Below, one piece after another: positions 24,574-44,633 of a stretch of 64,000 nucleotides of DNA (position 1 is its first letter; every line of letters begins with the position of its first letter). Source of the DNA: Candidatus Bathyarchaeota archaeon (GTDB lineage: Archaea > Thermoproteota > Bathyarchaeia > 40CM-2-53-6); assembly GCA_963833125.1 (NCBI GenBank), contig CAWHWX010000016.1:64001-128000 (forward strand). The letters are read 5' to 3'. The notes beneath the pieces are model-generated. The model was not told the DNA's origin and searched no databases. It saw nothing but the letters and a program-made list of their open reading frames with translations. The translations under genes and the position numbers were made by a program.

Positions 24574-24619
24574 CGGACGAGAATTGGGCAAAATCGAAAT
24601 AACTGCAAACCTTGGATCG

Positions 24620-24857: not shown

Positions 24858-24900
24858 GTCATGGTTGTTGTTTTCGTCGGTGTGCGCAGGTGTCGGGAAC

Positions 24901-26073: not shown

Positions 26074-26500
26074 GCTAAACGGCTCTCAACGTCCATGGGA
26101 AATCTCTGGTAATAAGAACCATGGCTCAGGTTCAGGATTAGACATTCATCTAATGCATTCCGACTTACGGTAGTTAACAATCACCTTGGAACCTTCAACG
26201 GCGAATCTTCGGGTAATGGCGCTGCCGATTCTAGCCCGAACCACCAGTAACGATCGTGACTCTATCTTTCAATTTCATGAGTGAGATCACGAGAAGGAGA
26301 TGAGGTCTTTATTCTAAAATCTTCTTCGAAGATCTAATACCGTAACCTTCCTGATTGACAGATTGTTTTTGCTTCAATGTCCTACGGAAACCGATTATTA
26401 ATCAAGTAGCGAGTCCTCGAACGTTCAATTTGAGGCTTGAAATCGGCCGCCTTCATGCCAAGTGTTAAATATAGTTCGAAGAACCAGTTTTCAGATCCCC

Positions 26501-28075
26501 TTGTCTACACAGAAGGTATTCCTACGGGAAGCAACTGGATTAGTTAGGTCCTTCACATGGTATGATGCGACTATATTGAGCCTGGCCGTAACAGGACCTA
26601 CCCTGTTCGGAATGTCCTCCCAAATCGGCTACGTAGCCCCTAACGGACCTGGAGCCGACTTCACAATTTCCGCGATCATTGGATTCCTGTTCATGATCCC
26701 CCTCGCAGTAGTATACTACATCTTTTCGGTTCAGATGCCAAGATCCGGAGGGGACTATGTGTGGCTTGGGCGAACACTGAACCCAATTTTGGGATTTGTT
26801 GGGGGATGGGCTATGTTCATTTCATTCATTGCGCTTCTAGCAAGCGCATCTGTAACGGAACCCGCAGTCGTTATACCAGACGTAGGCGTAGCCTTAGGAT
26901 ACATCTGGAACAACCCAGGACTAATTTCCTGGGGACAGAACTTCGCGAGTAGTACGACAAATCTATTCGCTGGGACGATCCTCACGATAATTATTGGGAT
27001 TATTATCGCCGCTTGCACGCCAAGGGTTTACAGTCGTATTATGCTCGTTTTAGCTGGAATAATCTTCATTGCCTCTTTCATCTTCATCGGCGCCTTCGCG
27101 ACCCAACAAGTGCCTCATTTGCGACAGGGCTAAGTAACTTAACGAATGGAACCATGACGGTTAATGGAGTTGTATCTCAAGCCGCATCGGCGGGTATGCC
27201 TTTCGTTCCGGTGAATCAGACCGCCACTTTCCTAGCAGTCCCATTTGGGGTCTTGCTATTCAACGGATTCAATTATTCCGTCTACATCTCTGGCGAAGTA
27301 AGGAATGTGAAGAATGGAATGCTATGGGGTGTGATGGTTGCACTATTGATCTGCGGAATTCTCGATATAACGGGACTCTACTTCATAACGAACGCGGAAA
27401 GCTACCCATTCATGCAAGCAGTGTTTGGGTTATTCAACCAGGGTAAGCTCTCCCTAGGAGTTTCCCCATGGTCGCCCGTTTTCATCCCAGCAGTCCTAAG
27501 CAACCCATACCTATCGAGTTTCGTCGAGATCGGATTTCTATTATTCAACTTCTGGTGGGCCGCAGGCCTCGCCATCTGCATCTCGAGGTACGTGTTCGCA
27601 TTCTCATTCGACCGGGTACTTCCAACCGTTTTCGCAGATGTGAACGATAGACTCCACGTCCCGTTGAAAGCGGTCGGGTTGACTTTCGTAATTTCAGTCA
27701 TCCTAACCTACATCGCCATATACACGACATACATCGGACAGCTGCTCAATGTGGTTACGATTTGGGCCGTCGTCTGGATTCTGGTAGGAATATCGGCCAT
27801 TGTCCTTCCATTTTGGAAGAAAGAATTCTCCAAGGGTCTCATTGGCGGTCGTTGGTTACTTCCAATCTTTGGCGTTCTAACAATCATAGGCATGGGAACT
27901 ACCCTCTACTGGTCTGTGACAAACCCTGCAATTGGGCCCTCGACTCCGGCCTCGACCCTCCTGCTGGTCGTGATATTCGGATCCGCTGTCGTCATCTACC
28001 TAGCGGCGATACTTCTACTTCAAGGGCAAAGGTCTTGACCTTATCAAGGGCCAAATGGAGATACCGCCAGAATAA
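26501..28075 (+). CDS. APC-family amino acid permease (frameshifts ~27110, ~28005)
   Basis: FLREATGLVR, MPRSGGDYV, GEVRN and FDRVLP motifs; corrected C-terminus EIPPE*. Confidence 0.88.
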
Positions 28076-28173
28076 GAAGACCAACAGAGCGAACAAATCT
28101 CCAAATACTCTGCCGCCTTAAGGTGCGTCATCGGTCAATGCCGTCGATGCACCGTACGTTATTTTTCGGTCAG

Positions 28174-28649
28174 CTAAGTCTTGGAGAAGGGTGGGCGTTC
28201 TAGGATTTCTCTGATCTCGGACGTAATCTGAACGTCTTTCTCGTATGTAATTCTAAACACCCATCGGAGCAGGTTCGCTGGGATATGATGCCGACCAGTT
28301 TTCCTTTCTCAACCACAGGTAGTCGCCTGACGCCGTGTTTGAGCATTGCAGCCATTGCTTCCTGGTTGGTCGGACGTGCTACCGTAATCAGTGGACCTGA
28401 CATTACGTTCCTAACTGGAGTTTTGAGAGCATTTGTTCGTTTCGCCACGTACCGTGAGATATCACGTTCTGTGACGATCCCCACTGGTGTCCCTTCTTCA
28501 ACGACTACGATGCTTCCAATATTCCGCTTCACCATTTTCTGCAATGCGTACTTCAGCGATCGCTTTGGTTCAACGGTCTCAACCCTAACTGCCATAAGAG
28601 CTTCCACTGAGTCTGAATCAACCACGTCAGGCAAACCCGTCATCAACAC
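28174..28649 (-). CDS. CBS-pair protein (frameshift near the 3' end)
   Basis: IGSIVVV..GIVTERD and VRRLPVV..LVGIIS motifs. Confidence 0.85.
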
Positions 28650-28895
28650 ACTGGCGCTTTCATCGGGATTAAAGGCTTCTTGGGAAAACCAAGTCTACGA
28701 CTACTAGGCTCTTTTTTGCGAGCTGCAAAAAAAAGGCCGTCCGTCCGAGAAACGTCTTACCGAAGCAAATCCAGGAAATCGTGTAACCTAGACCGGAAAT
28801 TTGGATTATAGCAGGTTACGAGGCGTCTTTTATGTTAGGGCCTCTCTCTTGGCCGAGTTGGTGTTGAAAGAGATGCTCCCTGTGGATTCAGCTGG

Positions 28896-29144
28896 GTGGG
28901 TCATAAACGGCAGATCGTTGTTGAGGTTCTAGGATGGTATGGATTGATCGCTATCGTACTTGCCTATGGGACCGTGAGTCTGAGCTTTGCTTCGCCGAAT
29001 AGTTTGGCGTATCAGTTCTTGAATCTAAGCGGAGCCGTAGGGCTTGGCCTAGTAGCGTTCGCTAAGAGGGCGTATCAAAATGGCGTTCTAAATGTGGTTT
29101 GGGGCGCAATAGCTGTCGTGGCTTTGATACATCTAATTCTCTGA
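28896..29144 (+). CDS. CBU_0592-like small membrane protein
   Basis: LGWYG..LAY..YQFLNLSG..LNVVW pattern with three TM helices. Confidence 0.7.
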   Translation: MGHKRQIVVEVLGWYGLIAIVLAYGTVSLSFASPNSLAYQFLNLSGAVGLGLVAFAKRAYQNGVLNVVWGAIAVVALIHLIL

Positions 29145-29183
29145 ACTCTGCCGTCGAAAACAGCTGTATGGTTAAGGGAATTT

Positions 29184-30077
29184 TCAGTATGCGCTGGTCG
29201 GTAAGAACTTCTCTACTCGTTTCCTGAGCTCTATAGCGGCTTTTGACCATTTCCCGTCGCACACATTGTTTAGGTAACTGTCATTCTCAAATTCGAGCGA
29301 GAGATACCCACGGTACCGAGAATTTCGTAGAGCCATGAAGAACTTCTTCCAATCGACTACTCCCTCGCCAAGAAATGGGAAAATGAAGGTTTCTCCAAGG
29401 CCTCCCGGTTTCCCGAAGGCATCCTTCACATGTACATGTCACACTTTATCACCGAGCATTTTCGCCGCCCAAACGGGGTCATTTCCATACACCACAAAGT
29501 GAGATAGATCCAGGTTCACTCCAAGATACTTGGAATCAAAGTAACTCAGAAACTCCTTAACAGTATAGTAATCGTGCACCAACATTCCGAATACAGGTTC
29601 AACCGTAACCACGACATGATTCTTCTCCGCCGACTCGACCAGATTAGAAAATGAATCGACAACAACCTTCCAAGCTTCGCATTCCGAGATTTCCCGACCA
29701 ATCCTCTGAAACTCAGGATTCCAAGTCATCGGTCCCGTGAAGACGTTCATCAAGGGGATGGATAATTCGCTCGCTTCCCCCAACATAGCGGTCAAGACTT
29801 TCAGACTCCTATTCCTAACGCTACGATTCTTCGTTACGAGATCCTGCCAACACATTATGTTCGATACGGCGAGGCCACGTCTTCTCGTTTTGATGACCAG
29901 CTTTCTGAGTTCCCTGGTAGTCCGGAAATGCTGACCTAGCATCCATTCTACACCCAGCAGTACCCTGCTTTCGAGATGACACAGGATGGCTTCGTCAGTT
30001 GACGGCGAAGCCCAAACCGCCGGGGAAGTCATGTAGTAAGGGATCAATGATAACTTCCAGTCGGAGGCTCTTGTCAA
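29184..30077 (-). CDS. Sugar phosphate isomerase/epimerase TIM-barrel protein (in-frame TGA at 29439-29441)
   Basis: VEP, NLDLSH, HVHVKD, GEGVVDW and LSLEFE motifs; the two ORFs are in the same frame. Confidence 0.8.
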
Positions 30078-30081
30078 TTTT

Positions 30082-30925
30082 CTAGTAAGAGCCTCCTATT
30101 TCCTTCACGACGAGGCCTATTTCTGTCAGACATTTTTCATCTTCCGCTTTCTCGCCTAAAGTAAAATGCGTCATCCCAGCGTCCACATACTGTTCAACGT
30201 CTCTCCGAAGAGTCTGGATGTCTGTTCGGTTGATTAAGTTCGTAAATGCAAATTGGTCATGAGGATATTTTCGCTTGCTCAACTCGTCGAGGATTACTTT
30301 TCCCATTTCCGCATATTCGTTAGGTTTGGGGTAGCTATCGTCGAACCATCTCGGGCCTATAGGCATCCATCCATCCGCATACTTTCCCCGCCTACGTGAA
30401 GCGACACTGGTAGATGTCCCCCCCACCAGATTGGTGGATAGGGTTTCTGAATTGGTTTAGGCTCGAGAGCGGCACCCTTTGCGTTACATATTTCCCATGG
30501 GAATCCACCAACACCGGCTCGGTCCATAAGCGTTTCATCAATCGGATTGCTTCAAGGCTAAACCGAGATTCTCTCCTTATTCTCATGCCATTCGGAATAC
30601 CCTTCGAACTCAGGCCGGTACCACCCAAACCCCACTCCAACTATCAGGCGTCCATCAGACAGGTAATCTATAGTTGAGGCCATCTTTGCTAGAATACCCG
30701 GCGGTCGAAATGTGAGGGGTGTAACGGCCGTTCCTAATCTGAGTTTGACGGTTTTCGCGGCGGAGTAAGGGAGGAAGTCCAAACATCGATATGATTGTTT
30801 GAGTTTGGGAGCATGAAATGATCTGTTACAAGAAAATAATCATAACCCACTTTTTCGGCTTCCACTGCGAGTCTTTCGATGAGCTTCGGTTTTGCCCGTC
30901 CAGTGACAGCTATTCCACACTTCAA
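30082..30925 (-). CDS. LLM-class flavin/F420-dependent oxidoreductase (several frameshifts)
   Basis: TDHF, RLGTAVT, RPPGILAKMASTIDYLSDGRLIVGVGFGW and YADGW motifs across four ORF pieces. Confidence 0.85.
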
Positions 30926-30999
30926 TCCACATACCTCGCTGAAGGAGGTCGATGTAGACTAAGGCTAATATACAAAGCGAATCGCCTGTCTTCTACGAG

Positions 31000-31502
31000 A
31001 TGACAACCTATGCCCACACAGTCCCCATCTGGAATGAGGATTACTCAGTCACGGTAGTTGTGAAGGATTTACGGAAAACGATGGAAGCATATCACAAGAT
31101 TCTCGGTTGGGGCCCTGGAGTGTCTACGAACATAAACCCCCAATCCTGCACCACCAAGAACTCCATGGAAAATCGGCTAACTATTCCATGCTTGGCGCGG
31201 AAGTCCACTGTGACCCGATCGACTTCGAGATACTGCAACCTTTGGAAGGACCGAGTATCTACAAGGAGTTCTTAGAAGAGAAAGGTGAAGGACTGCATCA
31301 CGTTTCGGTTGTTAGCCCTGCTGAGGATGTTGAAAAAGCACTCGCCGATTTCAAGAAAAACGGCGTTGACGTAATGATGAGCGGAAGGCTAGGTGAGAAC
31401 ATCAGGTTCTACTACATGGATACTGAGCCAGTTTTGAAGATGGTGGCTGAGACCGTCAGTGGTCACGCGATTTCTATGAAGCCCATCTACACCTACCCTT
31501 GA
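31000..31502 (+). CDS. VOC family protein (frameshifted)
   Basis: VVVKDL, GPW, FEILQPLEGPSIY..GEGLHHV and FYYMDT motifs. Confidence 0.85.
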
Positions 31503-31560
31503 CATTCATCCATCGAAAATAGAAGCAAGCGCCGTAACAGACAAGCCCGAGGAGATCGAG

Positions 31561-32262
31561 ATGTCTGATTTCAGCCTACCAGGCGTTGAACAACGAATCA
31601 TTGATGACTTGGCGAGTAAAACGGTTGAAGTAGCTCGTGGATTGTTTGAGAACCACCTAGTAACCTCCACATTCGGTGTCGTGAGCAATCGAATCCCCAA
31701 CACCGACTATTCACTGATTACTCCGAGCGGGTTCAGCAAACTCACACTCAATACCCGCCATCTGATCATCGTAGACCTAGACGCCAAACTTGTTCAAGGA
31801 AATTTCAGGCCATCCGTAGAAACCGCCATGCATACTTACATACACAAGAATCGGCCCGAAATCAGTACGGTGATTCATACGCACTCACCGATGGCCTGCG
31901 CGTTTGCAGCCGCTAACATGGAGATTCCATGTGTGTCAGCGGAACAAGCATTCTACCTTGGAGGCAGAGTACCTCTGGTAAGGAAATATTCACTTCCCGG
32001 CACAACGGAACGTGCGGAGTTAGCGGCGGTCCTCAAGGCGCTCGAGAAATGTGATGCCGCTCTCCTGAGGAAGCATGGAGTCGTTGTTGTCGGAAGGACC
32101 CCCGAAGAAGGGTTGGAGACCGCGATAGTGCTCGAGGACATTGCCAACATGGCCGTCCACTCAATGATTCTTGCGAAACCTAGGGAGTTCACCAGAAAGG
32201 AACTATCCTACTTGAAGGTCTTCAAACGAACGAGGTATGGACAGCATCCTTCTGCAAAATGA
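31561..32262 (+). CDS. Class II aldolase/adducin family (FucA/AraD/MtnB-like)
   Basis: ITPSG, PSVETAMH, HTHS and KHG metal-binding motifs. Confidence 0.9.
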   Translation: MSDFSLPGVEQRIIDDLASKTVEVARGLFENHLVTSTFGVVSNRIPNTDYSLITPSGFSKLTLNTRHLIIVDLDAKLVQGNFRPSVETAMHTYIHKNRPEISTVIHTHSPMACAFAAANMEIPCVSAEQAFYLGGRVPLVRKYSLPGTTERAELAAVLKALEKCDAALLRKHGVVVVGRTPEEGLETAIVLEDIANMAVHSMILAKPREFTRKELSYLKVFKRTRYGQHPSAK

Positions 32263-32287
32263 CCCTTACCCTAGGGCATGAGTCAGT

Positions 32288-33851
32288 TTGAGCAATGACT
32301 ATCTGGCCGCAATAGACGCGGGAACGGGCAGCGGTAGGTGTGTAATCTTTGACTCGGAGGGCACACAAGTTGCGATTGCTTCGAGGGAGTGGTCGCATCC
32401 TACGATCCCGGCGTATCCTGGAGCTTTTGTGTTTGACACCGTGCGCAATTGGAAGCTTATTTGCGAATCAATTCACGAGGCGATTGATAGGGCTAAGATT
32501 CGGCCCGATGAAATTCGTGGCATAAGCGCGACCAGCATGCGTGAGGGCATGGTGCTCTATGATGAGGTTGGCAGTAGAAATCTGGGCCTGCCCGAACGTC
32601 GATTCGCGCGCGAAGAACGAAGTTGTCCAGATGATTAAGAAGGGTCTCGCTAAGAAGATCTACTTCAAGGCTGGGGACTGGCTCGCGATTACCTCGCCTC
32701 CAAGATTCCTTTGGATAAAGAAACACGAGCCAGAGATCTTCAAGAAAACTGCAAAGATGACTATGATTAGCGACTGGATTCTTTACAGGCTGACAGAGAA
32801 ATTTGCTACCGATCCTTCGATTGGCTCAAGCTCAAATCTGTTTCAACTCGAAAAAAGGACTTGGTCGGACGAAATCATCGACTGGTGTTCCCTACCTAGA
32901 AGTATATTTCCGGACGTAAAGGAACCGGGAACAGTGCTAGGAGATGTCACGGCTGAGGCCGCCGCCGAGACAGGTTTCAAACTGGGAACCCCTGTAGTCG
33001 TAGGTGGGGGCGACACTCAGCTCGGTCTTATCGGTATATCCGCCGTTCAACCCTATGATTCCGCCACAATTGGCGGAACGTTCTGGCAACAAACGGTTGT
33101 CACAGACAAACCGATCATAGACCCGAAGATTCGATTGCGCACTCTTTGCCACGCAGTTCAAGGAATGTGGATGACAGAGGGAATAGGGTTCCTATGTGGA
33201 TTGACAATGAGATGGTTTAGGGACGCGTTTTGCGAACGAGAAAAGGAAATTGCGGCTCGGGAAGGAGTTGATGCATACTCTTTGCTGGAAAAAGAGGCCG
33301 AAAAAGCGGGTGCCTGGTTCGAACGGTGTCATCCCAATTTTCTCAGACATAATGAATGCTAGAAGGTGGATTCATGCCTCCCCTTCCTTTGTGCAATTCG
33401 ACATCAACCGACCCGAGGCATCTGGCAAGAAAGAGTGCGTCAGGGCGATTGAAGAGAGCGCGGCTTATGTGGCGTTGGGCCATCTGCAAATATTGCAAGC
33501 TCTCACCCATAGAAAAATGAAACAAGTTGTATTCTGCGGGGGGCATCGAAAGGCTTCCTGTGGCCCCAAATATTATCAGACGTATTTGGTATCACGGTCA
33601 AGGTTCCGATAATCAAGGAATCTACGGCCCTAGGCGCGGCAATTTGCGCGGGAGTGGGCGTCGGGATATTTCGGAACCTGAAAGAGACTGCGAAGAGCAT
33701 GGTCAAATGGGACCGGACCTTCGAGCCCAATCAGACCACCCATAGAGAATACGTGAAATTTTACGGCCGATGGTGCAAAGTGTACAAGAAGTCGTTAGGG
33801 ATGGTTGAAGAAGGTCTGGTGCAGCCGATGTTCAGGGCCGCCGGAACATAG
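32288..33851 (+). CDS. lsrK: Autoinducer-2 kinase (FGGY family; frameshifts ~32570, ~33310, ~33545)
   Basis: LsrK-type strings DAGTGSGR, TSMREG..IWACPNVDSRA, GGGDTQ, GGTFWQQ, GLTMRWFRDAFC, PIFSD..WIHASPSF. Confidence 0.85.
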
Positions 33852-33960
33852 ATCGAAGATCCTAGAATGAAACTCATACGCGAACTTGAAATTGACTTGG
33901 AATACGAAGCGGAGAATGGCTAAAGAACTAGCCTGCAACTATTGACCAGCTGAGAAAGAA

Positions 33961-34980
33961 ATGGCGACCATAACCGAAGTACAAGAAGTACCGCAAAACG
34001 ACTACGCAAAGTACGGCCTAACGAAGGATCTCTTACGTGAAATGCTCAGGAAGATGCTCATTATCAGAAAGTTCGAGGAGAAAGTCGAGGAACTATTCAT
34101 TGTCAAAGGGTTATTGATAGGCCCATCTCACCTGTACCTAGGCCAAGAGGCGATAGCGACAGGCGCAATGATGGCGCTTCAGCCCAACGATTTAACGGTA
34201 ACCACATATCGCGGCCACGGACACGCTCTTGCCAAAGATGTTCCGTCCAACCTCTGCATGGCGGAACTTTTCGGAAAATCAACGGGTAACTGCAAAGGGC
34301 TAGGCGGCTCCATGCACGTTGCAATCTACCCCAAAACGGGTTCCATTTACGCCACGGCTATAGTTGGTAGCGGAATACCCATCACCGCCGGGGTTGGGCT
34401 AGGCCTCAAACAAAAGAAGACAAAGCAGATTGCCGCCACATTCTTCGGCGACGGTGCTTGCAATACTGGCGCGTTCCATGAGGGTGTAAACCTCATCGCC
34501 CTTTGGAAGCTACCGGTTCTACTATTCTGCGAGAACAATCAGTACGGAATGTCCACCAATGTCAAGATGTCAGTTTCAAGCCCAAGCATCGCTGAGAGAG
34601 CCCGCTCCTACGGAATGGAAACGACGGTTGTCAATGGAAATGATGTTGTAGCGGTATACGCCGCAACCAAATCCGCTGCTGAAAAGGCCCGCAGAGACTC
34701 CACCCCAACGTTCCTTGAATGCCTAACTTACAAGATGAAAGGTCACGGAGTCTATGACAAGGGAGAATATCGTCCCAAGGAAGAAGTCGCGAAATGGCTC
34801 GAACGCGATCCTATTCTTACATTCAAGAAACGGCTCCTAGACCAGAAGATCATGACAAAGGCAGAACTTGAACAACTCGACGCGACAACACAACAAGAAA
34901 TCGAGGACTCGGTTAAATTCGCCATGCAAGGTTCACCTTTACCTTTCGACGAGATCGGAAACTACGTTTACGCAAAGTGA
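33961..34980 (+). CDS. TPP-dependent acetoin/2-oxoacid dehydrogenase E1 alpha
   Basis: HLYLGQEA, YRGHGH, GGSMH and GDG..ENN motifs. Confidence 0.92.
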   Translation: MATITEVQEVPQNDYAKYGLTKDLLREMLRKMLIIRKFEEKVEELFIVKGLLIGPSHLYLGQEAIATGAMMALQPNDLTVTTYRGHGHALAKDVPSNLCMAELFGKSTGNCKGLGGSMHVAIYPKTGSIYATAIVGSGIPITAGVGLGLKQKKTKQIAATFFGDGACNTGAFHEGVNLIALWKLPVLLFCENNQYGMSTNVKMSVSSPSIAERARSYGMETTVVNGNDVVAVYAATKSAAEKARRDSTPTFLECLTYKMKGHGVYDKGEYRPKEEVAKWLERDPILTFKKRLLDQKIMTKAELEQLDATTQQEIEDSVKFAMQGSPLPFDEIGNYVYAK

Positions 34981-34985
34981 TACCA

Positions 34986-35964
34986 ATGAAAGAACTCACT
35001 TATGCTGACGCACTCCGTGAAGCGCTGCGCGAAGAAATGATCCGTGATCCGAACGTGATACTTCTCGGGGAAGAAATCGGCGTCTTCAACGGGGTCTACA
35101 AGGTTACTAGAGGTTTGCTCGACGAATTCGGGCCTGAACGTGTTAGGGATACTCCAATCTCAGAAGCAGCCATCACTGGGGCGGCAGTGGGTTTGGCGTT
35201 GGCTGGCATGAGGCCCGTAGCCGAAATCATGTACATGGATTTCCTCCCCATATGCATGGATCAGTTGTCTACCCAAGCTGCAAAAATGCGCTTCATGAGT
35301 GGAGGCCAACTCCAGGTACCCATGGTCTTGAGAACCCAATACAGCCTCGGCCGACAACATGGATCACAGCACTCACAATTCACGCCCGCTTGGTTTCTGC
35401 AGGCACCAGGATTGAAGGTAGCATTGCCCGCTGATCCAAGCGACGCTAAAGGCCTACTGAAGTCAGCAATACGAGATCCCAACCCAGTCCTCTTCGTAGA
35501 GAGTGGCCTACTCTACCGAACCAAAGGACCAGTACCCGAAGAAGAATACCTAACCCCTCTCGGACAAGCAGCCGTGAAGAAGAAGGGGGACGATGTCACA
35601 ATTGTAGGAGTTTCAAGAATGGTTAATGAATCTCTCGCAGCCGCGAAAAAACTTGAAGATAATGGCGTCTCAGCTGAAGTCATAGATGTGAGAACAATCC
35701 AACCGCTCGACCTTGATACAATCGTCGAGTCAGTTAAACGAACTTCCAGGCTGGTTATCGCATCCGATGATGTAAAGAGAGGTGGCGTGGGAGCCGAGAT
35801 CTCAGCCTCAGTCACAGAGGCGGCCTTCGACTACTTAGACGCACCAATTACACGGGTCGCATGCCCGGACATGCCAATACCATTCTCACCCACCCCTCGA
35901 GCAGCAGTATATGCCCAACGCAGCGAGCGTAGTCCAAGCCGTCCAAACCATATTGGGCAAGTGA
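34986..35964 (+). CDS. Acetoin/2-oxoacid dehydrogenase E1 beta (frameshift ~35895)
   Basis: GEEIG, RVRDTPISE, RPVAEIM, QHSQ and LDAPITRV motifs; corrected end ILGK* at 35964. Confidence 0.92.
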
Positions 35965-35970
35965 TTCATC

Positions 35971-37137
35971 TTGACGCAAGTTGTGATGCCGCGTCTCGAT
36001 CCTGGAATGCAATCAGGCAAGATAGTTGAATGGCTGAAGAAGGAGGGCGAGTTGGTTAGAAAAGGCGAGCCCATACTCGTCGTAGAAGGAGAGAAAACCA
36101 CATTCGAAGTTGAAGCTCCAGACAGCGGCCCCTTAACCAAAATTCTAGCGAGCATCGGGACAGATGTCCAAGTTGCCGAACCAATCGCAATCATCGGAGA
36201 AGCCGGATCGGCAACACCCCAATCAGTACCAAACGAGAAAACTGAGCAAGAGCGACCACAGCAACCTTCTGACTGTCCCTGCCTCCGGAACTCCGTCGGA
36301 TCGGGTAATTGCATCTCCCGCAGCACGGCGTTTAGCCCAAGAATACGGCCTCGACCTAACCTCCCTAAAGGGAACTGGCCCAGGTGGCCGAATAACGCGA
36401 GAAGATATCCTCGCAGCAAAACAAAGCACACCAGCATCGCAGTCTACCCAAATCCTCTCAAAGATGCCTCAACCCGCCGTTCTAAAGAGAACGAAACTCG
36501 CAGGGATCAGAAAGGCTGTAGCCGAAAGACTTTCGTTCAGTGCGCGAACAGTCGTCCCAGTCACGATTACCATCGAAGCAGACGCCACGAAACTATTGGC
36601 GATGAAAGAGCAGAGCCACGTTGGGTTCTCAGCTCTCGGAGTAAAAGCAGCTGCAAAAGCATTGGGTGACCATACCGATGTTAACTCAACAATAGAAGGC
36701 GACGAAATTACAAATTACTCTGACGTAAACGTCGCCGTAGCCATACACACCGAACAAGGCCTAGTTGCACCTGTAATCAGGAATGCAAACAAACTATCTC
36801 TGAAGGAGATTAGCTCAACGATTGAAGAGCTCGCCAAGAAAGCTGCCGAGAATCGCCTAACAATTGAGAACTTGACTGGCGGAACATTCACGGTAACCAA
36901 CCTCGGCGCATTCGACGTCGAATCGTTCGCACCCGTCATCAACCCTCCTCAATGCGCAATTCTTGGTCTGGGCCGAATCGCCTACAAACCATTCGCCAAC
37001 GGAAGTCAGGTATCCGCGCTAGACCATCAACCCTACTAACACTAGTTTTCGATCATCGAATTATCGATGGTGTCCCGGCGGCTAAGTTCCTAAGGGACCT
37101 GAAACGTAATCTTGAGGAACCGGAAGGCCTGCTCTAA
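35971..37137 (+). CDS. Dihydrolipoamide acyltransferase E2 (two frameshifts)
   Basis: Lipoyl domain (EGEKT), peripheral-subunit-binding domain (ASPAARRLA..GTGPGGRIT), GGTFTVTNLG and DHRIIDG. Confidence 0.9.
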
Positions 37138-37177
37138 CTCCAACCTTCGATCGACGGATTATCGAGTATCTAGAAGC

Positions 37178-38237
37178 CTACTTTGTTGGCGGACGCAAGG
37201 CTATCTTCAATGCCTTTCCGCTTCCCATCAACTGAAGAGCTTCCTCAGCCCGATCAAGAGGCATCTCGTGGGAGATTAGCGGTTTTATGGATACCCGCCC
37301 CGACACGATCAATCGGAAGGCCCGTTCAACTGAGGAAGGTGTATGGTGGAACGCTCCTTGAACGTGCAATTCGCCATAGTGTATCCTCTCCGCTTCGAAT
37401 GAAGCCATCGTCCCTGACGGGCATCCGCCAAAGAGGAGGATTGTCCCGCCCTTTCGTGCTAGACCCGGAGCCGCGTCCCAAGTTTCACGTCGGCCGACCG
37501 CTTCCACGACCATATCAGCTCCTCTCCCGTCAGTTAGCTCACGGACCCTTGCTACGAGATCCTCAGTTGACGAGTTTATCGTTACATCCACTCCAACTCC
37601 CTTAGCCTCCTTCAACCGGTCTTCCACGAGATCACACAATGCCACCTGACGTGCACCGTTGAGCCGCGCGAGTTGGGCATGTAACAGACCTATCGGGCCA
37701 CCACCGATGATTACGACAGTTGCTCCGGCAGGTAGGTCCTTAGTAAGGTCCCACCGTGAACGACGCAAGCCAAAGGTTCTAGACTGGCCACAGTCTCGAG
37801 TGGCACGCCCTCCGGCACCTGAAATGTATTCTGCCGAACTATTTTTTCTGGAACTCGAATATATTCAGCGTACGTCCCTGGCCAAGTGAACCCAATTATG
37901 CTGTCATTCAAATGCTCGCACAGATTCGGTTGGTGCAAGAGGCAGTAGAAGCATCGATTGCAAGGGGCTGCGTTCGCAGCAACCACTTTCATCCCAACGC
38001 TAAAGTTTGTGACCTCTTTGCCGAGGGCGGAAACGGTTCCGGCGAATTCATGTCCCATTATCTGGGGCGGTTTTGCGAGTAGGTGCCCGCGTTTGTACAT
38101 CTTAACATCTGTGCCGCATGTCAAAGCGACGGCGCTTTTCACAATCAATTCTCCCGGTTCAGGTTCAGGCACAGAGACTGTTCCACTTTGAGATTACCGG
38201 GTTCGTAGAACCTAACTGCGAGCATTGTGTTTGCCAT
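37178..38237 (-). CDS. Zn-dependent alcohol/polyol dehydrogenase (frameshifted)
   Basis: CGTD, GHE, C-x2-C-x2-C-x7-C, EPLAC and GGGPIG motifs. Confidence 0.88.
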
Positions 38238-38308
38238 GAATTGATTCTTAACCTCCTCTGGTTAGTTGATATTTAGCTCCGCTGCAACTGACTGGGCTTC
38301 GCAGTCTC

Positions 38309-39332
38309 TCATTCGTTCTCAACCATTATCTTAACCGCTTCCCCCGCATTCTCCAAGGCGAAGCGGCTATTGTTCGAGCGAGCGGGAACCTGTCCGTAAT
38401 GACCTCTGATGGTCTAACTCGTTTACTCTCGATCAGTTGCATTGCCATTCGCATTTCAGTTTCGGATGTGGAGTAGCTCGACTGAAACCGTACTTCTCGG
38501 AGAAACATCTTACTCATATCCAGTGACATCGTCGTGCCTCGTGTTGGTGCGCCGAACAGAAGGACTGTTCCTCCTTTACGAACCGTGGCAAACGCTGATT
38601 CTAGCGCTTTCAAGTTGGCGGTTGCGACAATCGTGTAATCAACCCCGAGGCCTCCGGTTAATAGGGAAATTGTCTTAGGGGCGTCGTCGGTTGTTGGATC
38701 GAATGATAAATCGGCGCCTAACTTGGTCGCGAAATGTCTACGTTGCTTAATCACATCAATAGCGTATACGGGTCCGGCCCCGAAGCATTTCAGGAGTTGT
38801 ACATGAGTCAGACCAACTGGACCCAGACCATATATCGCGACACTGTTACCCACAGAAACGCCAACCTTACGAAGTGCTCGGATGCAACATGCTGTGGGCT
38901 CTGCCTGTGAGCCTTCCTCGAAACTCATGGAATCAGGCAACTTGTACACCGTTCCCCCGTTCACTAGCGCCTTTGGAACCCTGAAATATTCCGCGAACCG
39001 CAAGGATCGAGATTGCTTTTCGGATATTCTTCGCAAAGCGTTTCGAGGCCGTTCTTGCAAAAGTAGCAGTGGCGGCATGACACATGATGGTGTACGACGA
39101 CTCGGTCGCCGACAGCAAAGTCTTTGATTTGTGTTCCGGCTTTGTGTATTACTCCAGATACCTCATGTCCAAGGATGGGAGGAGTAATGTGTTCTCCATG
39201 AACCTTCTCCACATCAGTCCCGCAGATCCCACACGCTCGCATAGCCACGAGTATCTCGTCGGGATTAATCTCAGGCGTAGGGAGGTTCTGAATCTGAACC
39301 GTTCCATTCTCTTGGATGATTACGGCTTGCAC
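38309..39332 (-). CDS. Zn-dependent alcohol/polyol dehydrogenase (frameshifted)
   Basis: CGICGTD, GHE, HHHVSCRHCYFC, EPTAC and GLGPVG motifs. Confidence 0.88.
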
Positions 39333-39490
39333 CGCTCAACCCTACCAAACATGTTCAAGACTCTAGGGCTGAGTCTTATGAAGTAGGGACATATTTCAGA
39401 GACTCGATTAGCGATTACTGGTATCGAGCAGCCCAAGTAGTTCCACAAGATTCAAGGGTTAGAGGGACAGGTTGCCGAACTCGTTGCGTC

Positions 39491-39583
39491 GGGCTCGTGG
39501 TCCAGCCTGGTTAAGACGTCGCCCTCACATCTCCTAGGTGAGACCGGCGAAGATCCCCGGTTCAAATCCGGGCGGGCCCACCA
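39491..39583 (+). tRNA. tRNA-Val(CAC) with canonical 15-nt intron at 37/38 (39530-39544) and encoded CCA
   Basis: Acceptor stem GGGCTCG/CGGGCCC, anticodon stem TCGCC/GGCGA, T-arm CCCGG-TTCAAAT-CCGGG. BHB has central helix CTCA/TGAG with bulges CAT and ACC. Confidence 0.95.
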
Positions 39584-39705
39584 CCCCACCACTCAAACAT
39601 TTCATCTATCCTAGCCAGCCACGTCGCATTGTGTTCGCCGGATCGGGTAGCCTCTAAATATGAGCAGGCTATGAAACATGAGTAACCGGTCAAGAGGTAA
39701 AACCA

Positions 39706-39984
39706 TTGAAGTCTAACATGAAAATGCTTGTTTACGCCGTTGTGGCGGGTGTCGTACTCACTCTGTTAACCGGCCTAATTGGTAACACCCCCGAGATCGG
39801 GGGTCAGCCGTTGATGGGGGCGGTTTACTTCGGGTATCCATTCGCCTGGTTGGAGATGCTCGTCGTGGCTCCTCAGTATTTCCCATGGGTCGTCCGTCCC
39901 TTGCGATTAATCCTTGACATCGTCGTCTGGACGGTTGTAGTCTGGGTTATCCTCTTCGTCGTGTCGAAGGCTAAGAAGAAGTAA
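39706..39984 (+). CDS. Small membrane protein
   Basis: N- and C-terminal TM helices around a GYPFAW motif. Confidence 0.7.
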   Translation: MKSNMKMLVYAVVAGVVLTLLTGLIGNTPEIGGQPLMGAVYFGYPFAWLEMLVVAPQYFPWVVRPLRLILDIVVWTVVVWVILFVVSKAKKK

Positions 39985-40010
39985 CCGCCAAGCTATGGAT
40001 TCCTTGCAGT

Positions 40011-42677
40011 TCAGCTTAGCTTAAGCTCTGCAAAAACGTTCTCCTGTTCTCTCCGGATGGAGCAGCCAAGTTTTTCGCAGAGTCGGATCATCCTGAGATT
40101 CTCAGCCATCACTGTACCGTAGATCGATTCAATTCCCTTCTCCTTAGCGAATTCAATTAGCATATCGACTAACTTGACACCGAGACCCTTTCCCTGATAT
40201 TTGTCGGCAACCACGACTGCGAATTCTCCCCGTTTCTTATTGGGTTCGAGAATTAATCGGCTCACTCCGATCTCAAAAGTTCGGTTTCCTTCTCGGGTTT
40301 CGGCGATGATTGCCATCTCCCTGTCGTAGTCGATGTTGCAGAAACGGACGAGGGCCTCATGTGGGAGGTCCTTGATTATTTGGAAAAATCTGAATCGGCT
40401 CGTTTCCGTAGACAAGCCTCTTATGAATTCTAACTCTATGGGTTCGTCTTCCGGTTTTATGGGCCTTAGAGTAACTTCGGTCCCATCTTTCATTCTCCAG
40501 GGCATGACATATTTTGACGGGTAAGGAGTGATTACCAGATGGGGGTAGGGTTCGGTATGGTCGAGAGCGCGGGGATCAATAATCATCCTTGCGTCGAGAA
40601 CGGAGAATTCACCCTTGGAGGCGATGAGTGGGTTGATGTCCATCTCAGCGATTTCAGGGAAGTCAACGATTAGATTGGAGAAGCGTACCATGATCTCTTC
40701 GAGGGGTCGTATGTCGACAGGTTTCTTGTTCCGTAGACCTTTCGTAAGTGCTTTGAATATCTTTGTTTCTTCCATGATGCGATGTGCGAGAATCTGATTT
40801 AGCGGCGCGAGTCCGATCGATACATCGTTAATGAGTTCAACTCCTGTCCCGCCCATTCCAAATAGAATCACAGATCCAAAATCCTTGTCCTTTTTCGCGC
40901 CTAGGATGAGTTCGTAGTCGATCTCAGATGCCATTTTTTGCACATAGATACCGTCGATTTTAGCTTCAGGATACGCTTTGTGGGCTCTATCGATAATGGC
41001 CTTGTACGCATCCTTGACCGCTTGAGCTGACTCCATGCGGATAACGACTCCACCAATGTCCGTTTTGTGAAGAATGTCTTCAGACGAGATTTTCAACGCT
41101 ACTGGGTAACCAATGTCTAACGCGATCATTGCCGCTTGGTCTGCACTTTTACTCAACGCGCCCTTCGCTCTCGGGATTGCATAAGCATCGAGGAATCGGT
41201 CAACTTCAGATTGATTGAGGGCTTTTCGCGTCTTCGCTGCCTTGCGAATCAGTACTTTGAGATGGCTCTTTGGCGGAGAGAAGTCCACGCGTAATTCTTG
41301 TGGGGTTTGGTAGAGCTGATCGAGGTTTCTTCGGTATTGGTACATGTACGTGTAGGTCTTTATCGCTTCTTCAGGCGTTGAGTAAGTCGGTATGTCGTTT
41401 CGGTGGAATATTTCGCGACTTTCCCTAACGCTGCTCTCGCCCATCCAGACCGTAAGCATTGGCTTGCGTCTGTCCGCGGCGATTTTCGTAACGGCTTCGG
41501 CGAGCTGCGTGGGTTGAGTCGTTCCTTGGGGAGTGTAGATTACAAGGAGCCCATCAACATTCGGATCCGCAATGCAGGTCTTCACTGCGAGTTCATACCG
41601 AGAGACGTCAGCGTCCCCTAGTATGTCGAGTGGGTTTCCTCGGCTCCAGTATGGAGGAAGGGCTCCATTCAGTATTTTCATGGACTCGTCAGACAATTGC
41701 GCTAATTGGCCACCATGAGTGACAATTGAATCAGCTGCTAAGACCGCGGGTCCTCCGGCGTTGGTGACGATGGCTAAGTTCGGTCCCGCTGGCAGAAACC
41801 TTGAGTCTAGGACGGTGGCGCAATTGAAGAGGTCTCCAATCTCGTCGACCATCACAACGCCGGCTCTCTTGAAGGCGGCCTCGTAGACTGCGAAGTCACC
41901 CGCCAGTGCGCCTGTATGTGATGATGCTGCCTTTGCGCCCGCAGAGTTTCTTCCCGCCTTGATTACAATAATGGGTTTTGTGCGTGCAAAGCCTCTGGCC
42001 GAACTCATGAACTTCTTAGCATTTCCGACGCCTTCCATGTAGATGATGATGCTCCTAGTGTTTGGGTCCTCGCCAAGATAATCGATCATATCCCCATAAT
42101 CGATGTCTAGGGTCGATCCTAGCGAAGCAAAAATGCTGAAGCCTATGCCCGTGCTTACAGCCCAGTTGACTATCGCTGATCCCAATGCTCCGCTCTGTGA
42201 GATGAATGCAATTTGGCCAGGTTGAGGGTTGTCTCGGAGGAATGTGGCATTGAGGGCTACTTGTGGCCTCGCCACTCCCACACAGTTTGGTCCTAGAATC
42301 CGAATGTCGTGCATCGATTGAATTTGCTTAATCTCGCTCTCTAGTTTGGCGCCTTCAGCTCCGATCTCTCGGAACCCGGCCGAAATGATGACGGTGCCGT
42401 CCACGCCAGCTTTCGCGCACTCCGCTACTATGGACGGTACAGTCCTTGCCGGCGTAGCGATTACAGCCAGATCGACGTGTTCTGGTATCTTGGATATCGA
42501 TGGGTAACACTTCAATCCCAAGACGGTATCCTTGTTTATGTTCACTGGGTAGATTTTCCTGCGATCCTTCCCCAATAGTAGGTTTCTCGTCAGAGATTGA
42601 CCGATCGATCCCTCGCTCTCAGAAGCCCCGATTATAGCAACGACTTTGGGGTTCAGCATTTTCTCGATACTGGCCAT
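40011..42677 (-). CDS. Bifunctional NDP-forming acyl-CoA ligase-like / GNAT protein (Pat-type lysine acetyltransferase)
   Basis: CoA-binding AIIGAS, GPNC, SQSG, SHTG, NPLD, ATP-grasp HKTDIGGV, and a C-terminal GNAT domain (YQGKGLG). Confidence 0.9.
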   Translation of the reverse strand: MASIEKMLNPKVVAIIGASESEGSIGQSLTRNLLLGKDRRKIYPVNINKDTVLGLKCYPSISKIPEHVDLAVIATPARTVPSIVAECAKAGVDGTVIISAGFREIGAEGAKLESEIKQIQSMHDIRILGPNCVGVARPQVALNATFLRDNPQPGQIAFISQSGALGSAIVNWAVSTGIGFSIFASLGSTLDIDYGDMIDYLGEDPNTRSIIIYMEGVGNAKKFMSSARGFARTKPIIVIKAGRNSAGAKAASSHTGALAGDFAVYEAAFKRAGVVMVDEIGDLFNCATVLDSRFLPAGPNLAIVTNAGGPAVLAADSIVTHGGQLAQLSDESMKILNGALPPYWSRGNPLDILGDADVSRYELAVKTCIADPNVDGLLVIYTPQGTTQPTQLAEAVTKIAADRRKPMLTVWMGESSVRESREIFHRNDIPTYSTPEEAIKTYTYMYQYRRNLDQLYQTPQELRVDFSPPKSHLKVLIRKAAKTRKALNQSEVDRFLDAYAIPRAKGALSKSADQAAMIALDIGYPVALKISSEDILHKTDIGGVVIRMESAQAVKDAYKAIIDRAHKAYPEAKIDGIYVQKMASEIDYELILGAKKDKDFGSVILFGMGGTGVELINDVSIGLAPLNQILAHRIMEETKIFKALTKGLRNKKPVDIRPLEEIMVRFSNLIVDFPEIAEMDINPLIASKGEFSVLDARMIIDPRALDHTEPYPHLVITPYPSKYVMPWRMKDGTEVTLRPIKPEDEPIELEFIRGLSTETSRFRFFQIIKDLPHEALVRFCNIDYDREMAIIAETREGNRTFEIGVSRLILEPNKKRGEFAVVVADKYQGKGLGVKLVDMLIEFAKEKGIESIYGTVMAENLRMIRLCEKLGCSIRREQENVFAELKLS

Positions 42678-42817
42678 TGTCAACTCGTCTGATTCTGAGC
42701 TTACGGCTAGTGATAAACGGGTTATCGATGGTTCCTGACTATGACAATTTGAATTGGGGACGATTTGGAACCGAAACTTTCACACATAAGCGAATCCGTG
42801 CCTTTTCTGACATTTGG

Positions 42818-43804
42818 TTAGCGCATCAAAAATGCCAGTACGTATCCCAAGGTCAGCGTCGCTCCAAAGGTCATCTGGAGAAAGGCCGTGCCTCGAACAG
42901 CGCGGCTGAGCGGCTTGCCTTCCACTCCGGAAGCGACAAACCGAGTGAGCCGATACGCTTGTGGAATCGTTAGGAACGCTAAGAGGGTCGACAGAGGCGC
43001 AGAGTTAGTCGCAACAAGCCCTGCTAAGATGATATACGCTCCAGCGATCATCGCGTAAAAGACCAAACGGGAGAAAACCCTACCTCGCTCGATGCCCCAC
43101 GACCTACTTGCCAGTACTGCCCAAGTGATCCGATTTCGCTCCTTGTCTTGTACAATGTCTCGCAGGTTGTTAGCGTGTAGGATGGCCATTACTAGGAGCC
43201 CTACGGGGAGGGAGACAAGCAGGGGGGACCAAGCGAGGCTTCTAGCTTGAACATAGTAGCTGGCAACGACCATGACAGGACCCATGAAGATGAAAACCTC
43301 GAGCTCCCCAAGGCCCCGGTAGCCAAGCGAGACAGGTTTCGCTGTGTAGAACCAAGCTGCCAAAACACTCGTTAGTCCGAGAATTAGGATGATCCATCCA
43401 ACTTGCTTGACTATGTACAAACCGACTATGACACCGAAAGCAAAAGCTACTATTGCAGCCCAGAGCACCTGCCTCGGCCTGAGTTTTCCTTCAAGAATTA
43501 CGCCTGCGGGGCCCAAAGAGTCCGGTTTGTCAACCCCTTGCACATAGTCAAAATACTCGTTAGCCAAGTTTGTTCCTGCCTGCATGGCGACGGACCCGAA
43601 TAGGGTGAGCAGAAAGAGAAACCAGTCCGCATGTCCACCATACCACGCTATAGCGGAACCTACAAGCACGGGGACTATCGACGCTGGATAGGTGAATGGC
43701 CTGAGTGCAATGTACCAGACATGTAACGAATGCCTGTCATTCCGTTGCGGCACAGCCATAACACGTCTTAACCGCGAACCATTCGGGTGCCTGTAATTCA
43801 TCAT
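42818..43804 (-). CDS. menA: 1,4-dihydroxy-2-naphthoate prenyltransferase
   Basis: LRPFT, NEYFDYVQGVD, GYRGLGE and NNLRDIVQD motifs. Confidence 0.9.
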   Translation of the reverse strand: MMNYRHPNGSRLRRVMAVPQRNDRHSLHVWYIALRPFTYPASIVPVLVGSAIAWYGGHADWFLFLLTLFGSVAMQAGTNLANEYFDYVQGVDKPDSLGPAGVILEGKLRPRQVLWAAIVAFAFGVIVGLYIVKQVGWIILILGLTSVLAAWFYTAKPVSLGYRGLGELEVFIFMGPVMVVASYYVQARSLAWSPLLVSLPVGLLVMAILHANNLRDIVQDKERNRITWAVLASRSWGIERGRVFSRLVFYAMIAGAYIILAGLVATNSAPLSTLLAFLTIPQAYRLTRFVASGVEGKPLSRAVRGTAFLQMTFGATLTLGYVLAFLMR

Positions 43805-43822: not shown

Positions 43823-44633
43823 TTACCAAGGAGGTTGATTTCGAAAGCGAGCGTAATTTGGTGCGCGCTTCTCAAGGAAGGCTTTCGTACCTTCCTTGCA
43901 TTCGTCACTCGAGTAGTAAAGCGCCGTAGCTCCGTGTGCGAGGTTTTGGATGCCGTAGACATGATCCGTGTCTGAGTTGAAGGCGTACTTCAGAAAGCGC
44001 AAAGCAGTCGGTGCACGCTGGAGAAGTTCCTTAGCCAAGGACATCACCTCGTTTTCGAGTTGATCAGGTGGAAACACAAAGTTGACGAGCCCCATGTCGA
44101 GAGCTTCTTGGGCAGAGTAACGACGGCACAAATACCAGATCTCTCGAGCTTTCTTTTCGCCAACAATGCGTGCGAGATAAATCGACCCGAAACCACCGTC
44201 GAAGCTACCGTATTTGGGTCCGATTTGTCCGAAGACCGTGCGAGTGGAGGCAACAGTCAGGTCACATAACACATGAAGGACGTGCCCCCCACCAATGGCG
44301 TACCCATCAACCATTGCAATGACGGGTTTCGGTATCTCTCGTATCAACCGGTGGAGGTGGGTAACTTGCAGTCTCGGAGTTCCCGGAATCGTCCTCGTAG
44401 CCGCCCTCACCGCGAATGCTAACGTCGCCCCCTGAACAGAAGTTACCATTTGTCCCGGTGAGAACAACAACTCCAACTTCCCGATCGTACCAAGCGTCTA
44501 AGAAAGCCTGTCGCATCTCATCTATCGTCAGCGGTCGAAAGGCATTGAGCACTTTAGGCCGGTTCATCCGAACGAACGCTACGCCGTCCTTCTTTTCGTA
44601 GAGTATGTCTTGGAACTCCATTTCAAATACCAC
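43823..44633 (-). CDS. menB: 1,4-dihydroxy-2-naphthoyl-CoA synthase (frameshift ~44385)
   Basis: [36 protein letters not shown] and [11 protein letters not shown] motifs. Confidence 0.93.

Follow-up and report, generated by a model that had tools for sequence, protein, structure and literature searches.

How does an archaeon make use of a kinase of the autoinducer-2 (AI-2) system when neither LsrG nor LsrF accompanies it? This question is raised by a gene cluster in a 64,000-nt stretch of a Candidatus Bathyarchaeota genome (hereafter the window, in which all positions without a contig or locus name are counted), which belongs to a 39-contig metagenomic bin of 3.07 Mb (assembly G000; completeness 87.8%, contamination 7%). 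Listing of the open reading frames (ORFs) and Pfam analysis showed a plus-strand run of genes for a VOC-fold protein, a class II aldolase-family protein, an FGGY kinase and the E1 alpha (E1a), E1 beta (E1b) and E2 components of a thiamine pyrophosphate (TPP)/lipoate dehydrogenase, with two minus-strand genes for Zn-dehydrogenases converging on it (Table 1); gene content and order are those given in the preliminary description of this DNA. The closest loci to the window were found in Candidatus Bathyarchaeia of soil, peat and sediment, and one of these relatives, G016 (locus L013), carries intact orthologues and was used as the reference. Of 22 congeners, 10 have an LsrK orthologue (72–90% identity), which always lies no more than about 1.7 kb from E1a, and the same gene order, with all genes intact, was observed in all six congeners with mapped loci. 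Given this shared order and the proximity of LsrK to E1a in every LsrK-bearing relative, the gene cluster is more than a chance assembly.

We favour, with a probability of roughly 0.4, a reading in which the locus consists of two joined units, an accessory unit A and a genus-wide unit B, and in which unit A processes a substrate resembling 4,5-dihydroxy-2,3-pentanedione (DPD) toward unit B. Unit A would comprise an APC-type permease, the VOC-fold metalloenzyme, the divergent class II aldolase-family protein and a true LsrK, and would be an LsrF-less derivative of a cassette of VOC, 2-hydroxyacid dehydrogenase, LsrK and LsrF that is common in soil bacteria and Nitrososphaeria. Unit B would comprise the E1a–E1b–E2 dehydrogenase, two Zn-dehydrogenases of the medium-chain dehydrogenase/reductase (MDR) type and an ACD-GNAT protein, and its probable function is the oxidation of a small acyloin, diol or 2-oxo compound to acetyl-CoA.

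The identity of the kinase is the best supported element of this reading. The copy in the window was scanned as pieces, matching FGGY_N and FGGY_C, and the full-length model score is that of the intact G016 orthologue, which reached 668.7 bits on the NCBIfam equivalog NF008187 (autoinducer-2 kinase; cut-off 528), the next model being XylB at 220.5 bits. The same orthologue is 46% identical to E. coli LsrK, end to end over 518 residues. In a maximum-likelihood tree of 31 FGGY sequences, E. coli LsrK and 22 LsrK-like sequences formed a clade with a long stem and a support of 100/98, outside which stood E. coli XylB, GlpK, FucK and AraB together with four archaeal paralogues. A review of LsrK (PMC8016206) gives T21, S91, M92, R93, D253, V254, F276, Q278, E308 and I310 as putative DPD-site residues of E. 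coli LsrK. At these putative positions the E. coli string TSMRDVFQEI is matched by TSMRDTFQEI, identical at nine of ten, in all five orthologues from loci of the window's kind (g1-type Bathyarchaeia) and in 72 of the 74 remaining LsrK-like loci, compared with two to five matches in other FGGY kinases. Taken together, the equivalog score, the identity, the clade and the putative DPD-site residues give good support to the kinase as a true member of the LsrK clade, and it would by this kinship be expected to act on DPD. The preliminary description had called it LsrK and had proposed an FGGY phylogeny as a check; the tree sustains that name.

The remaining Lsr components were not found. No lsrF, lsrG, lsrR or lsrACDB was present in the window, as had been claimed, and the search for lsrF and lsrG was extended to the whole 3.07 Mb assembly with recovery of the E. 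coli genes as controls. In tblastn searches of this assembly with the E. coli Lsr proteins, we detected no LsrR, LsrB, LsrC, LsrD or LsrG; LsrA matched generic ABC ATPases alone, at 32% identity or less, and LsrF matched ADH-synthase or aldolase paralogues alone. The LsrF model NF006081 exceeded its cut-off in none of 23 genomes of the genus, the best matches (195.6 bits versus 297) being ADH synthase, with positive controls of 559 bits in E. coli, 484 in a Solirubrobacterales genome and 383 in a Nitrososphaerota genome. The LsrG model NF007791 gave no match in the window's own assembly or in two genomes bearing both LsrK and LsrF, and 24.9 bits in G016, compared with 190.7 bits in the E. coli control. 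Neither LsrF nor LsrG was above cut-off in 14 standard control genomes, in place of which E. coli K-12 and two LsrF-bearing genomes served as controls. LuxS was not found in the window's assembly or in G016. One ADH-synthase paralogue (C4:107146-107916) was considered as a hidden LsrF and was ruled out on its scores, which are sufficient for the ADH-synthase models but not for the LsrF model.

To our knowledge, the processing of AI-2 is known from the enterobacterial-type LsrK–LsrG–LsrF route only. To place the archaeal locus among other LsrK loci, we scanned one genome per species and mapped 80 loci with an LsrK relative by tblastn and Pfam. Among 60 bacterial loci, a true LsrF (56–63% identical to that of E. 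coli) was present within 10 kb of LsrK in 50, a VOC protein of the same family as that of the window in 49 and a 2-hydroxyacid dehydrogenase in 55; the corresponding numbers were seven, eight and seven for nine Nitrososphaeria loci, and zero, seven and zero for eight g1-type Bathyarchaeia loci. Where found, the 2-hydroxyacid dehydrogenase gene almost always immediately precedes LsrK. LsrG and LsrB of the E. coli type gave no match in any of the 80 loci. The VOC gene, the aldolase-like gene and E1a–E1b–E2 are each present in seven of the eight g1-type loci, one of which ends 436 bases past LsrK and another of which starts 177 bases before it.

Across 77 other loci, the VOC protein proved to be the most constant partner of LsrK. 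An alignment of 63 VOC sequences from both domains showed 50 positions with at least 95% conservation, including Q14, E75, H99 and E149, which are kept in 62–63 of the 63 sequences and which, judged from their places in the VOC fold, are putative positions of the metal-ligand type. The G016 protein scored 43.9 bits on the MMCE equivalog (cut-off 114.95), and its closest solved structure is 3gm5 (1e-13). The reaction of LsrG, in which a carbonyl moves within an alpha-hydroxyketone, is of the kind that glyoxalase I catalyses. Because the VOC protein constantly accompanies LsrK and LsrF in loci without LsrG, and because the LsrG reaction is of the glyoxalase I type, we consider this protein to be probably the substitute for LsrG, that is, the proposed isomerase of the locus.

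The loci without LsrF differ in what stands beside the kinase. Another Bathyarchaeia locus (L036) contains VOC, cyclase, LsrK, DhaK, DhaL and a PF01116 class II aldolase. A Chloroflexia locus (L102, 3374-11560) carries a PF01116 class II fructose-bisphosphate aldolase, E1a, E1b, SDR, RpiB, triose-phosphate isomerase, VOC, 2-hydroxyacid dehydrogenase and LsrK; here LsrK and E1ab are paired a second time, independently. In two further Chloroflexia loci, L044 (11579-14396) and L047 (11566-14433), a RuBisCO-like protein and a putative cyclase adjoin LsrK and may be another substitute for the downstream step. A pyridoxal phosphate-dependent D-serine-dehydratase-like protein was found in L048 and L094, with a ribulose-phosphate 3-epimerase in addition in L048. 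The kinase–VOC core is thus found with a variety of downstream enzymes. Three of the LsrF-less forms (g1-type, L036 and L102) include a metal-dependent class II aldolase, and E1ab stands alongside in two of them.

The aldolase-family protein of the window was compared with E. coli AraD and FucA by alignment. It keeps the three metal-binding His, a Glu at the position of FucA Glu73 and the C-terminal Tyr. At the AraD sites, Asp76 is replaced by Glu, Asp120 by Phe and the phosphate-site Asn28 by Val; at the FucA sites, Tyr113 is replaced by Ala and Asn29 by Val, and PSV stands for the PSS of both enzymes. The numbering of these residues was verified on the E. coli sequences, and their catalytic, metal-binding and phosphate-site roles are those assigned to them in AraD and FucA. 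The protein scored 99.6 bits on the AraD equivalog TIGR00760 (cut-off 389), and the scores on all FucA models and on all NCBIfam epimerase and aldolase models were likewise below the cut-offs. With key residues of both enzymes replaced, it is predicted not to be a canonical enzyme of either kind, 4-epimerase or fuculose-phosphate aldolase. Its orthologues of more than 75% identity were found in LsrK-bearing congeners only. The aldolase-family genes that lie beside VOC in some bacterial loci are AraD-like (PSSD, YYGQ) and about 30% identical to that of the window.

These observations bear on the route proposed in the preliminary description, in which a Zn-dehydrogenase would convert phospho-DPD to a 1-deoxy-pentulose-5-phosphate by reduction, an AraD-like enzyme would epimerise the product and E1/E2 would cleave it to acetyl-CoA and glyceraldehyde-3-phosphate. 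Every enzyme class that this route needs occurs in the cluster, in linkage, and the retained metal-binding His and C-terminal Tyr would suit it; moreover, (S)-DPD is L-configured at C4, so that 4-epimerisation would lead to the D-xylulose series, as reasoned from established stereochemistry. However, the residues and the model score described above speak against an AraD-like epimerase, the VOC protein would be left without a role, and the block that contains the Zn-dehydrogenases and E1/E2 also occurs in the absence of LsrK. We hold this route to be very doubtful.

The dehydrogenase itself appears complete in its E1ab–E2 parts, with E1_dh in E1a, Transket_pyr and Transketolase_C in E1b, and lipoyl, E3-binding and catalytic domains in E2. 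The E1a orthologue of G016 scored 348 bits on TIGR03182, below the cut-off of 393.85, and its closest solved structure is human pyruvate dehydrogenase (PDH) E1a (8e-57). The E1b orthologue passed the PDH E1-beta subfamily model NF006667 (384 bits versus 321). E2 contains one lipoyl domain and was below the cut-offs of all E2 models. A search for E1a homologues returned close relatives of the Bathyarchaeia type alone, under a generic COG name. An E3 is encoded elsewhere (G000:C1:348109-349473; 521.5 bits) and is the only dihydrolipoyl dehydrogenase of the assembly over the cut-off; its gene has two TGA and one TAA codons inside the match, and a third E1a paralogue is found some 10 kb away. The genome also contains a gene of the LplA/LipB (lipoate-ligase) family and at least four loci for ferredoxin-type 2-oxoacid oxidoreductases.

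Is this dehydrogenase coupled to LsrK? Orthologues of E1a (73–95% identity) are present in about 20 of the 22 congeners. The order E1a–E1b–E2, Zn-dehydrogenase B, Zn-dehydrogenase A and ACD-GNAT is kept without VOC, aldolase and LsrK in G014, G011, G013 and G015. Several findings of this kind weigh against a coupling of the two units. The block stands without the LsrK module in four of the five LsrK-less congeners examined, the fifth (G001) having E1a–E1b–E2 alone. E1a of the window shares 84% identity with its counterpart in LsrK-less G015 and 76% with the one in LsrK-bearing G008, and E1a similarity thus appears to follow species and not the presence of LsrK. In addition, a TATA-like motif (Table 1) precedes E1a. 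A similar core, CTAAAGAAC or ATAAAGAAC, was found at the same place in three of the other five LsrK-bearing and in two of the four LsrK-less congeners shown. G010 and G011 have a weaker TAAAG core, and G020 and G015 have no such core. E1a would therefore have a promoter-like motif of its own, and the adjacency could be one inherited insertion and not coupling. In G158, from another genus of the order (L129:6794-14212), a Zn-dehydrogenase and a class II aldolase are encoded divergently from E1ab–E2, followed by E3 and LplA, which makes up a complete lipoate complex; no kinase stands with it, LsrK included. Two further points concern unit A. The loss of the FucA Tyr113 and of the phosphate-site Asn leaves aldolase-like chemistry open to doubt. 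The 2-hydroxyacid dehydrogenase of the bacterial cassette (55 of 60 loci) hints that the natural substrate is possibly not DPD/AI-2, because the AI-2 route of E. coli has no need of such an enzyme. As to the G158 aldolase, it is probably not of the same kind as that of the window, as it keeps the Asn lost in the window's clade.

The presence of the block in LsrK-less congeners, the pattern of E1a similarity and the motif common to both kinds of genome indicate that the dehydrogenase is not dedicated to LsrK, and that the block pre-exists with a function of its own. The preliminary description had presented LsrK as wired to the dehydrogenase. Linkage of the two is conserved within the genus, in all 10 LsrK-bearing relatives, and this part of the claim stands; an exclusive wiring does not, since the block with its Zn-dehydrogenases also stands without LsrK. 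The LsrK module is an accessory insertion before the pre-existing block, and may or may not feed it.

The latter case amounts to two independent units side by side, in which a self-contained LsrK module adjoins unrelated E1/E2 and Zn-dehydrogenases at its site of insertion, kinase and VOC isomerase act first, the aldolase-like enzyme then cleaves its substrate to dihydroxyacetone phosphate (DHAP) and acetate or acetaldehyde, and E1/E2 is of the acetoin/butanediol or pyruvate type. The LsrK-less blocks, the species-wise similarity of E1a and its upstream motif all fit such independence, as do the MIP channel that adjoins the block in an LsrK-less genome and the PDH-type matches of E1a (nearest structure) and E1b (subfamily model). 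With respect to pyruvate, however, no PDH would be needed in this organism, because of its ferredoxin-type 2-oxoacid oxidoreductase loci. Gene positions also argue for a connection. In all six mapped congeners, the VOC, aldolase and LsrK genes immediately precede E1a in the same direction, and in G010, L034 and L092 the VOC gene is located downstream of E2, which places E1/E2 inside the module. Outside the genus, E1ab genes occur within 10 kb of LsrK in five of 60 bacterial and two of nine Nitrososphaeria loci, one of them, in L102, being an operon-like run without LsrF. No E1a subfamily common to LsrK-linked loci of different phyla was found, the identities among them being flat at 31–59%. 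We regard independence of the two units as a quite possible explanation, and retain the reading in which unit A delivers its product to unit B.

In the proposed working of the joined units, the substrate would be taken up via the APC permease, and LsrK would phosphorylate it, the substrate being DPD (AI-2) or a very similar deoxy-keto-pentose. The VOC protein would then carry out a carbonyl shift of the LsrG type, a glyoxalase-I-like isomerisation of an alpha-hydroxyketone, to yield an acyloin or beta-diketone resembling 3-hydroxy-2,4-pentanedione-5-phosphate (P-HPD). To the aldolase-family enzyme we assign the C–C cleavage, because the genus is without LsrF; it would form a DHAP-type triose phosphate and a C2 unit, its metal stabilising the DHAP enediolate as LsrF does by a Schiff base. 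Finally, the neighbouring E1/E2 and a Zn-dehydrogenase would turn the C2 or acyloin fragment into acetyl-CoA. All of these steps are predicted from sequence and gene neighbourhood. The class II aldolase-like protein, perhaps together with E1/E2, thus probably replaces LsrF here, and AI-2, or a small keto-sugar like it, may be a substrate that the archaeon degrades. A stricter version of this scheme, in which soil Bathyarchaeia consume AI-2 itself without LsrG and LsrF, LsrK and a VOC-fold metalloisomerase leading to the acyloin P-HPD, and E1/E2, aided by the aldolase-family enzyme and a Zn-dehydrogenase, cleaving it to acetyl-CoA and triose phosphate, appears unlikely to us.

Any such working presupposes functional genes, and six of the eight cluster genes in the window are broken by indels of one or two bases, the aldolase-family gene and E1a alone being uninterrupted. 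Compared with the G016 orthologues, the kinase gene has one extra base at 32575, one extra at 33315 and one missing at 33538, and the frame also changes in VOC, E1b, E2 (two sites) and both Zn-dehydrogenases. These changes could reflect real pseudogenisation, with the cluster surviving in this organism as a decaying relic; the stretch 31110-35355, which holds the three lsrK indels, is indeed identical in the window and in a second contig of the same bin, C2, so that the two copies are not independent there. However, exactly the segment 24605-43231 of the window is duplicated on two short contigs of the bin, C2 (18.6 kb, 97.6% identical) and C3 (20.3 kb, about 87–92%), and the three versions carry different, non-nested sets of frameshifts. 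The window has an intact ACD-GNAT gene, which both C2 and C3 carry in shifted form; the aldolase-family gene is out of frame in C3 only and the VOC gene in the window only. Between the window and C2, 59 scattered indel events of 1–4 bases were counted in 18.6 kb, 29 of which adjoin a run of the same base.

Frame changes relative to G016 affect eight of 13 genes inside the duplicated segment and four of 25 syntenic genes outside it (12431-13511, 43826-44621, 46808-48599 and 53119-54071). Because genes outside the segment are hit as well, the contig as a whole bears indel errors or pseudogenes; stops inside the match of the E3 gene, on another contig, likewise speak against a decay peculiar to the cluster. 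In contigs from four public sediment or peat runs that are 90–99% like the window, the frame-restoring state was observed at seven sites, namely, 32574, 33315 and 33537 in the kinase gene and 35889, 36270, 37020 and 38997, with one base fewer at 35889 (E1b). Amino-acid identity to G016 remains 74–97% across the cluster genes, and is lowest in the out-of-frame stretch of lsrK. Based on the non-nested indels of the duplicate contigs, the frame-restored public contigs and the intact relatives, the frameshifts of the window are probably consensus errors of metagenome assembly in a strain-heterogeneous segment and not gene decay, and we judge the relic explanation highly improbable. The duplication of 24605-43231 looks like an assembly bubble from coexisting strains and adds to the contamination of the bin. 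More generally, consensus indels in long-read bins can mimic pseudogenes.

Compared with known systems, the locus shares with the Lsr branch of E. coli and Salmonella (LsrK, the isomerase LsrG and the CoA-dependent thiolase LsrF) an orthologous kinase and the expected end products, a triose phosphate and an acetyl unit. It differs in the absence of LsrG, LsrF, LsrR, LsrACDB and LuxS, and in having the VOC protein at the place of the isomerase and the class II aldolase-family protein with E1/E2 at that of LsrF. With the soil cassette it shares the LsrK clade and the VOC family (39–80% identity), and the APC permease is common to the Bathyarchaeia and Nitrososphaeria forms; the soil cassette is itself without LsrG and without an Lsr transporter. 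In contrast to that cassette, the Bathyarchaeia genus has no 2-hydroxyacid dehydrogenase and no LsrF, and has the aldolase-like gene placed before E1/E2. Acetoin dehydrogenase systems of the AcoABC type are associated with a butanediol dehydrogenase. Compared with such systems in their general description, the locus is alike in its heteromeric E1ab, its E2 with one lipoyl domain, its adjacent MDR Zn-dehydrogenases and an E3 supplied from elsewhere, and differs in that its best models and structures are of the PDH type, with E1a and E2 below the equivalog cut-offs. The DHAP shunt for 5-deoxyribose and methylthioribose consists of a kinase, an isomerase and a class II aldolase. Here too, a kinase, an isomerase and a PF00596 aldolase-family protein would yield DHAP and a C2 aldehyde; the locus differs in its FGGY-type kinase LsrK, its VOC isomerase and an aldolase-like protein without the canonical Tyr and phosphate-site Asn.

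The LsrF-less archaeal form is new. Literature searches in a part of PMC, without about 1.7 million of its articles and without subscription papers, returned no archaeal LsrK cluster, no VOC partner of LsrK/LsrF and no acetoin dehydrogenase of Bathyarchaeia; passages of PMC12781772 on the subject are not specific, and among the papers listed nothing relevant links 5-deoxyribose, 1-deoxy-D-xylulose or apiose to LsrK/LsrF. Soil bacteria and two archaeal lineages widely carry true LsrK genes without the uptake genes and LsrG, and it is therefore unsafe to count metagenomic lsrK as quorum sensing. A VOC-fold enzyme in the stead of LsrG is a testable hypothesis, and the archaeal form, in which LsrF would also be replaced, may reveal a new C–C cleavage chemistry for phospho-diketopentoses. 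If true, an AI-2 route without LsrG and LsrF would represent a novel archaeal pathway for quorum quenching and catabolism, and the first case of a phosphosugar substrate for a complex of the acetoin dehydrogenase type.

Table 1. Features of the locus, with positions in the 64,000-nt window.
Feature	Position	Strand	Remarks
APC-family permease, candidate uptake gene	26462..28072	+	Two frame changes; orthologue of G016 525-aa protein, 91–96% identity, three frames
VOC-fold (glyoxalase-like) protein	31006..31502	+	Pfam Glyoxalase_4 at 31107-31502; frame-shifted near 5' end
Divergent class II aldolase-family protein, intact	31561..32262	+	Pfam Aldolase_II 4e-42; start possibly 31624
LsrK-clade FGGY kinase	32288..33851	+	FGGY_N/FGGY_C in pieces; three single-base indels
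TATA-like motif GGCTAAAGAACTAGCC	33918..33933	+	28–43 nt upstream of E1a; one match in window, 0.06 expected
E1 alpha (TPP-dependent dehydrogenase), intact	33961..34980	+	Pfam E1_dh 5e-78
E1 beta	34977..35964	+	Transket_pyr and Transketolase_C (34977-36029); frame change near 35889
E2	35971..37137	+	Lipoyl, E3-binding and 2-oxoacid_dh catalytic domains, three pieces; frame changes at about 36270 and 37020
MDR Zn-dehydrogenase B	37178..38237	-	Pfam ADH_N and ADH_zinc_N, two pieces (37178-38172); two frame changes
MDR Zn-dehydrogenase A	38326..39332	-	Pfam Zn-ADH, two pieces; one frame change near 38997
ACD-GNAT fusion, 890 aa, intact	40011..42683	-	ADP-forming acyl-CoA synthetase-like region and C-terminal GNAT; last gene of genus-wide block

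Regarding the individual proteins of Table 1, the VOC protein of the window is 96% identical to the 165-aa G016 protein, split over two frames. The G016 permease orthologue gave weak matches to amino-acid transporters and nothing stronger. Homologues of this permease are encoded within 10 kb of LsrK in three of eight g1-type and five of nine Nitrososphaeria loci, and the copy in L066 is a Pfam AA_permease. The G016 orthologue of the ACD-GNAT protein scored 534 bits on TIGR02717 and 578 bits on NF045493, with a Pat GNAT match at residues 725–882, all below cut-off. A C-terminal GNAT joined to ACD is presumably the architecture of the bacterial PatZ/Pat protein acetyltransferases, and the protein may serve either in ATP formation from acetyl-CoA or in protein acetylation.

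Upstream of the module, a gene for a xylose-isomerase-like TIM-barrel protein and one for an F420/LLM-class oxidoreductase, the latter frame-shifted in the window, occupy 29190-30925 on the minus strand. Because their homologues (58–67% identity) stand 4–8 kb from LsrK in the Nitrososphaerales loci L040, L066 and L072 and in L028, these two genes may belong to the pathway. Downstream of the Zn-dehydrogenases, an Rfam search detected a 90-nt tRNA at 39491-39580 on the plus strand (50.8 bits); ARAGORN gave no tRNA in the window, and the gene is probably an intron-bearing archaeal tRNA.

Two contigs labelled as Acidobacteriota metagenome-assembled genomes (L033 and L034; Acidiferrales, Acidoferrum) bear the Bathyarchaeia-type cluster at 70–87% protein identity. 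Since the genome holding one of these contigs (G010) falls in the genus of the window, the acidobacterial labels look wrong, and both contigs appear archaeal by kinship. In the LsrK-bearing congener G008, positions 1-24000 of contig C6 (L130, L014) carry a large catabolic island with further E1a and E1b genes (E1a', E1b'), a cupin, two more VOC proteins, DUF4432, another FGGY kinase besides LsrK, DhaK and an APC permease, and this island then runs into the VOC–aldolase–LsrK–E1/E2 cluster.

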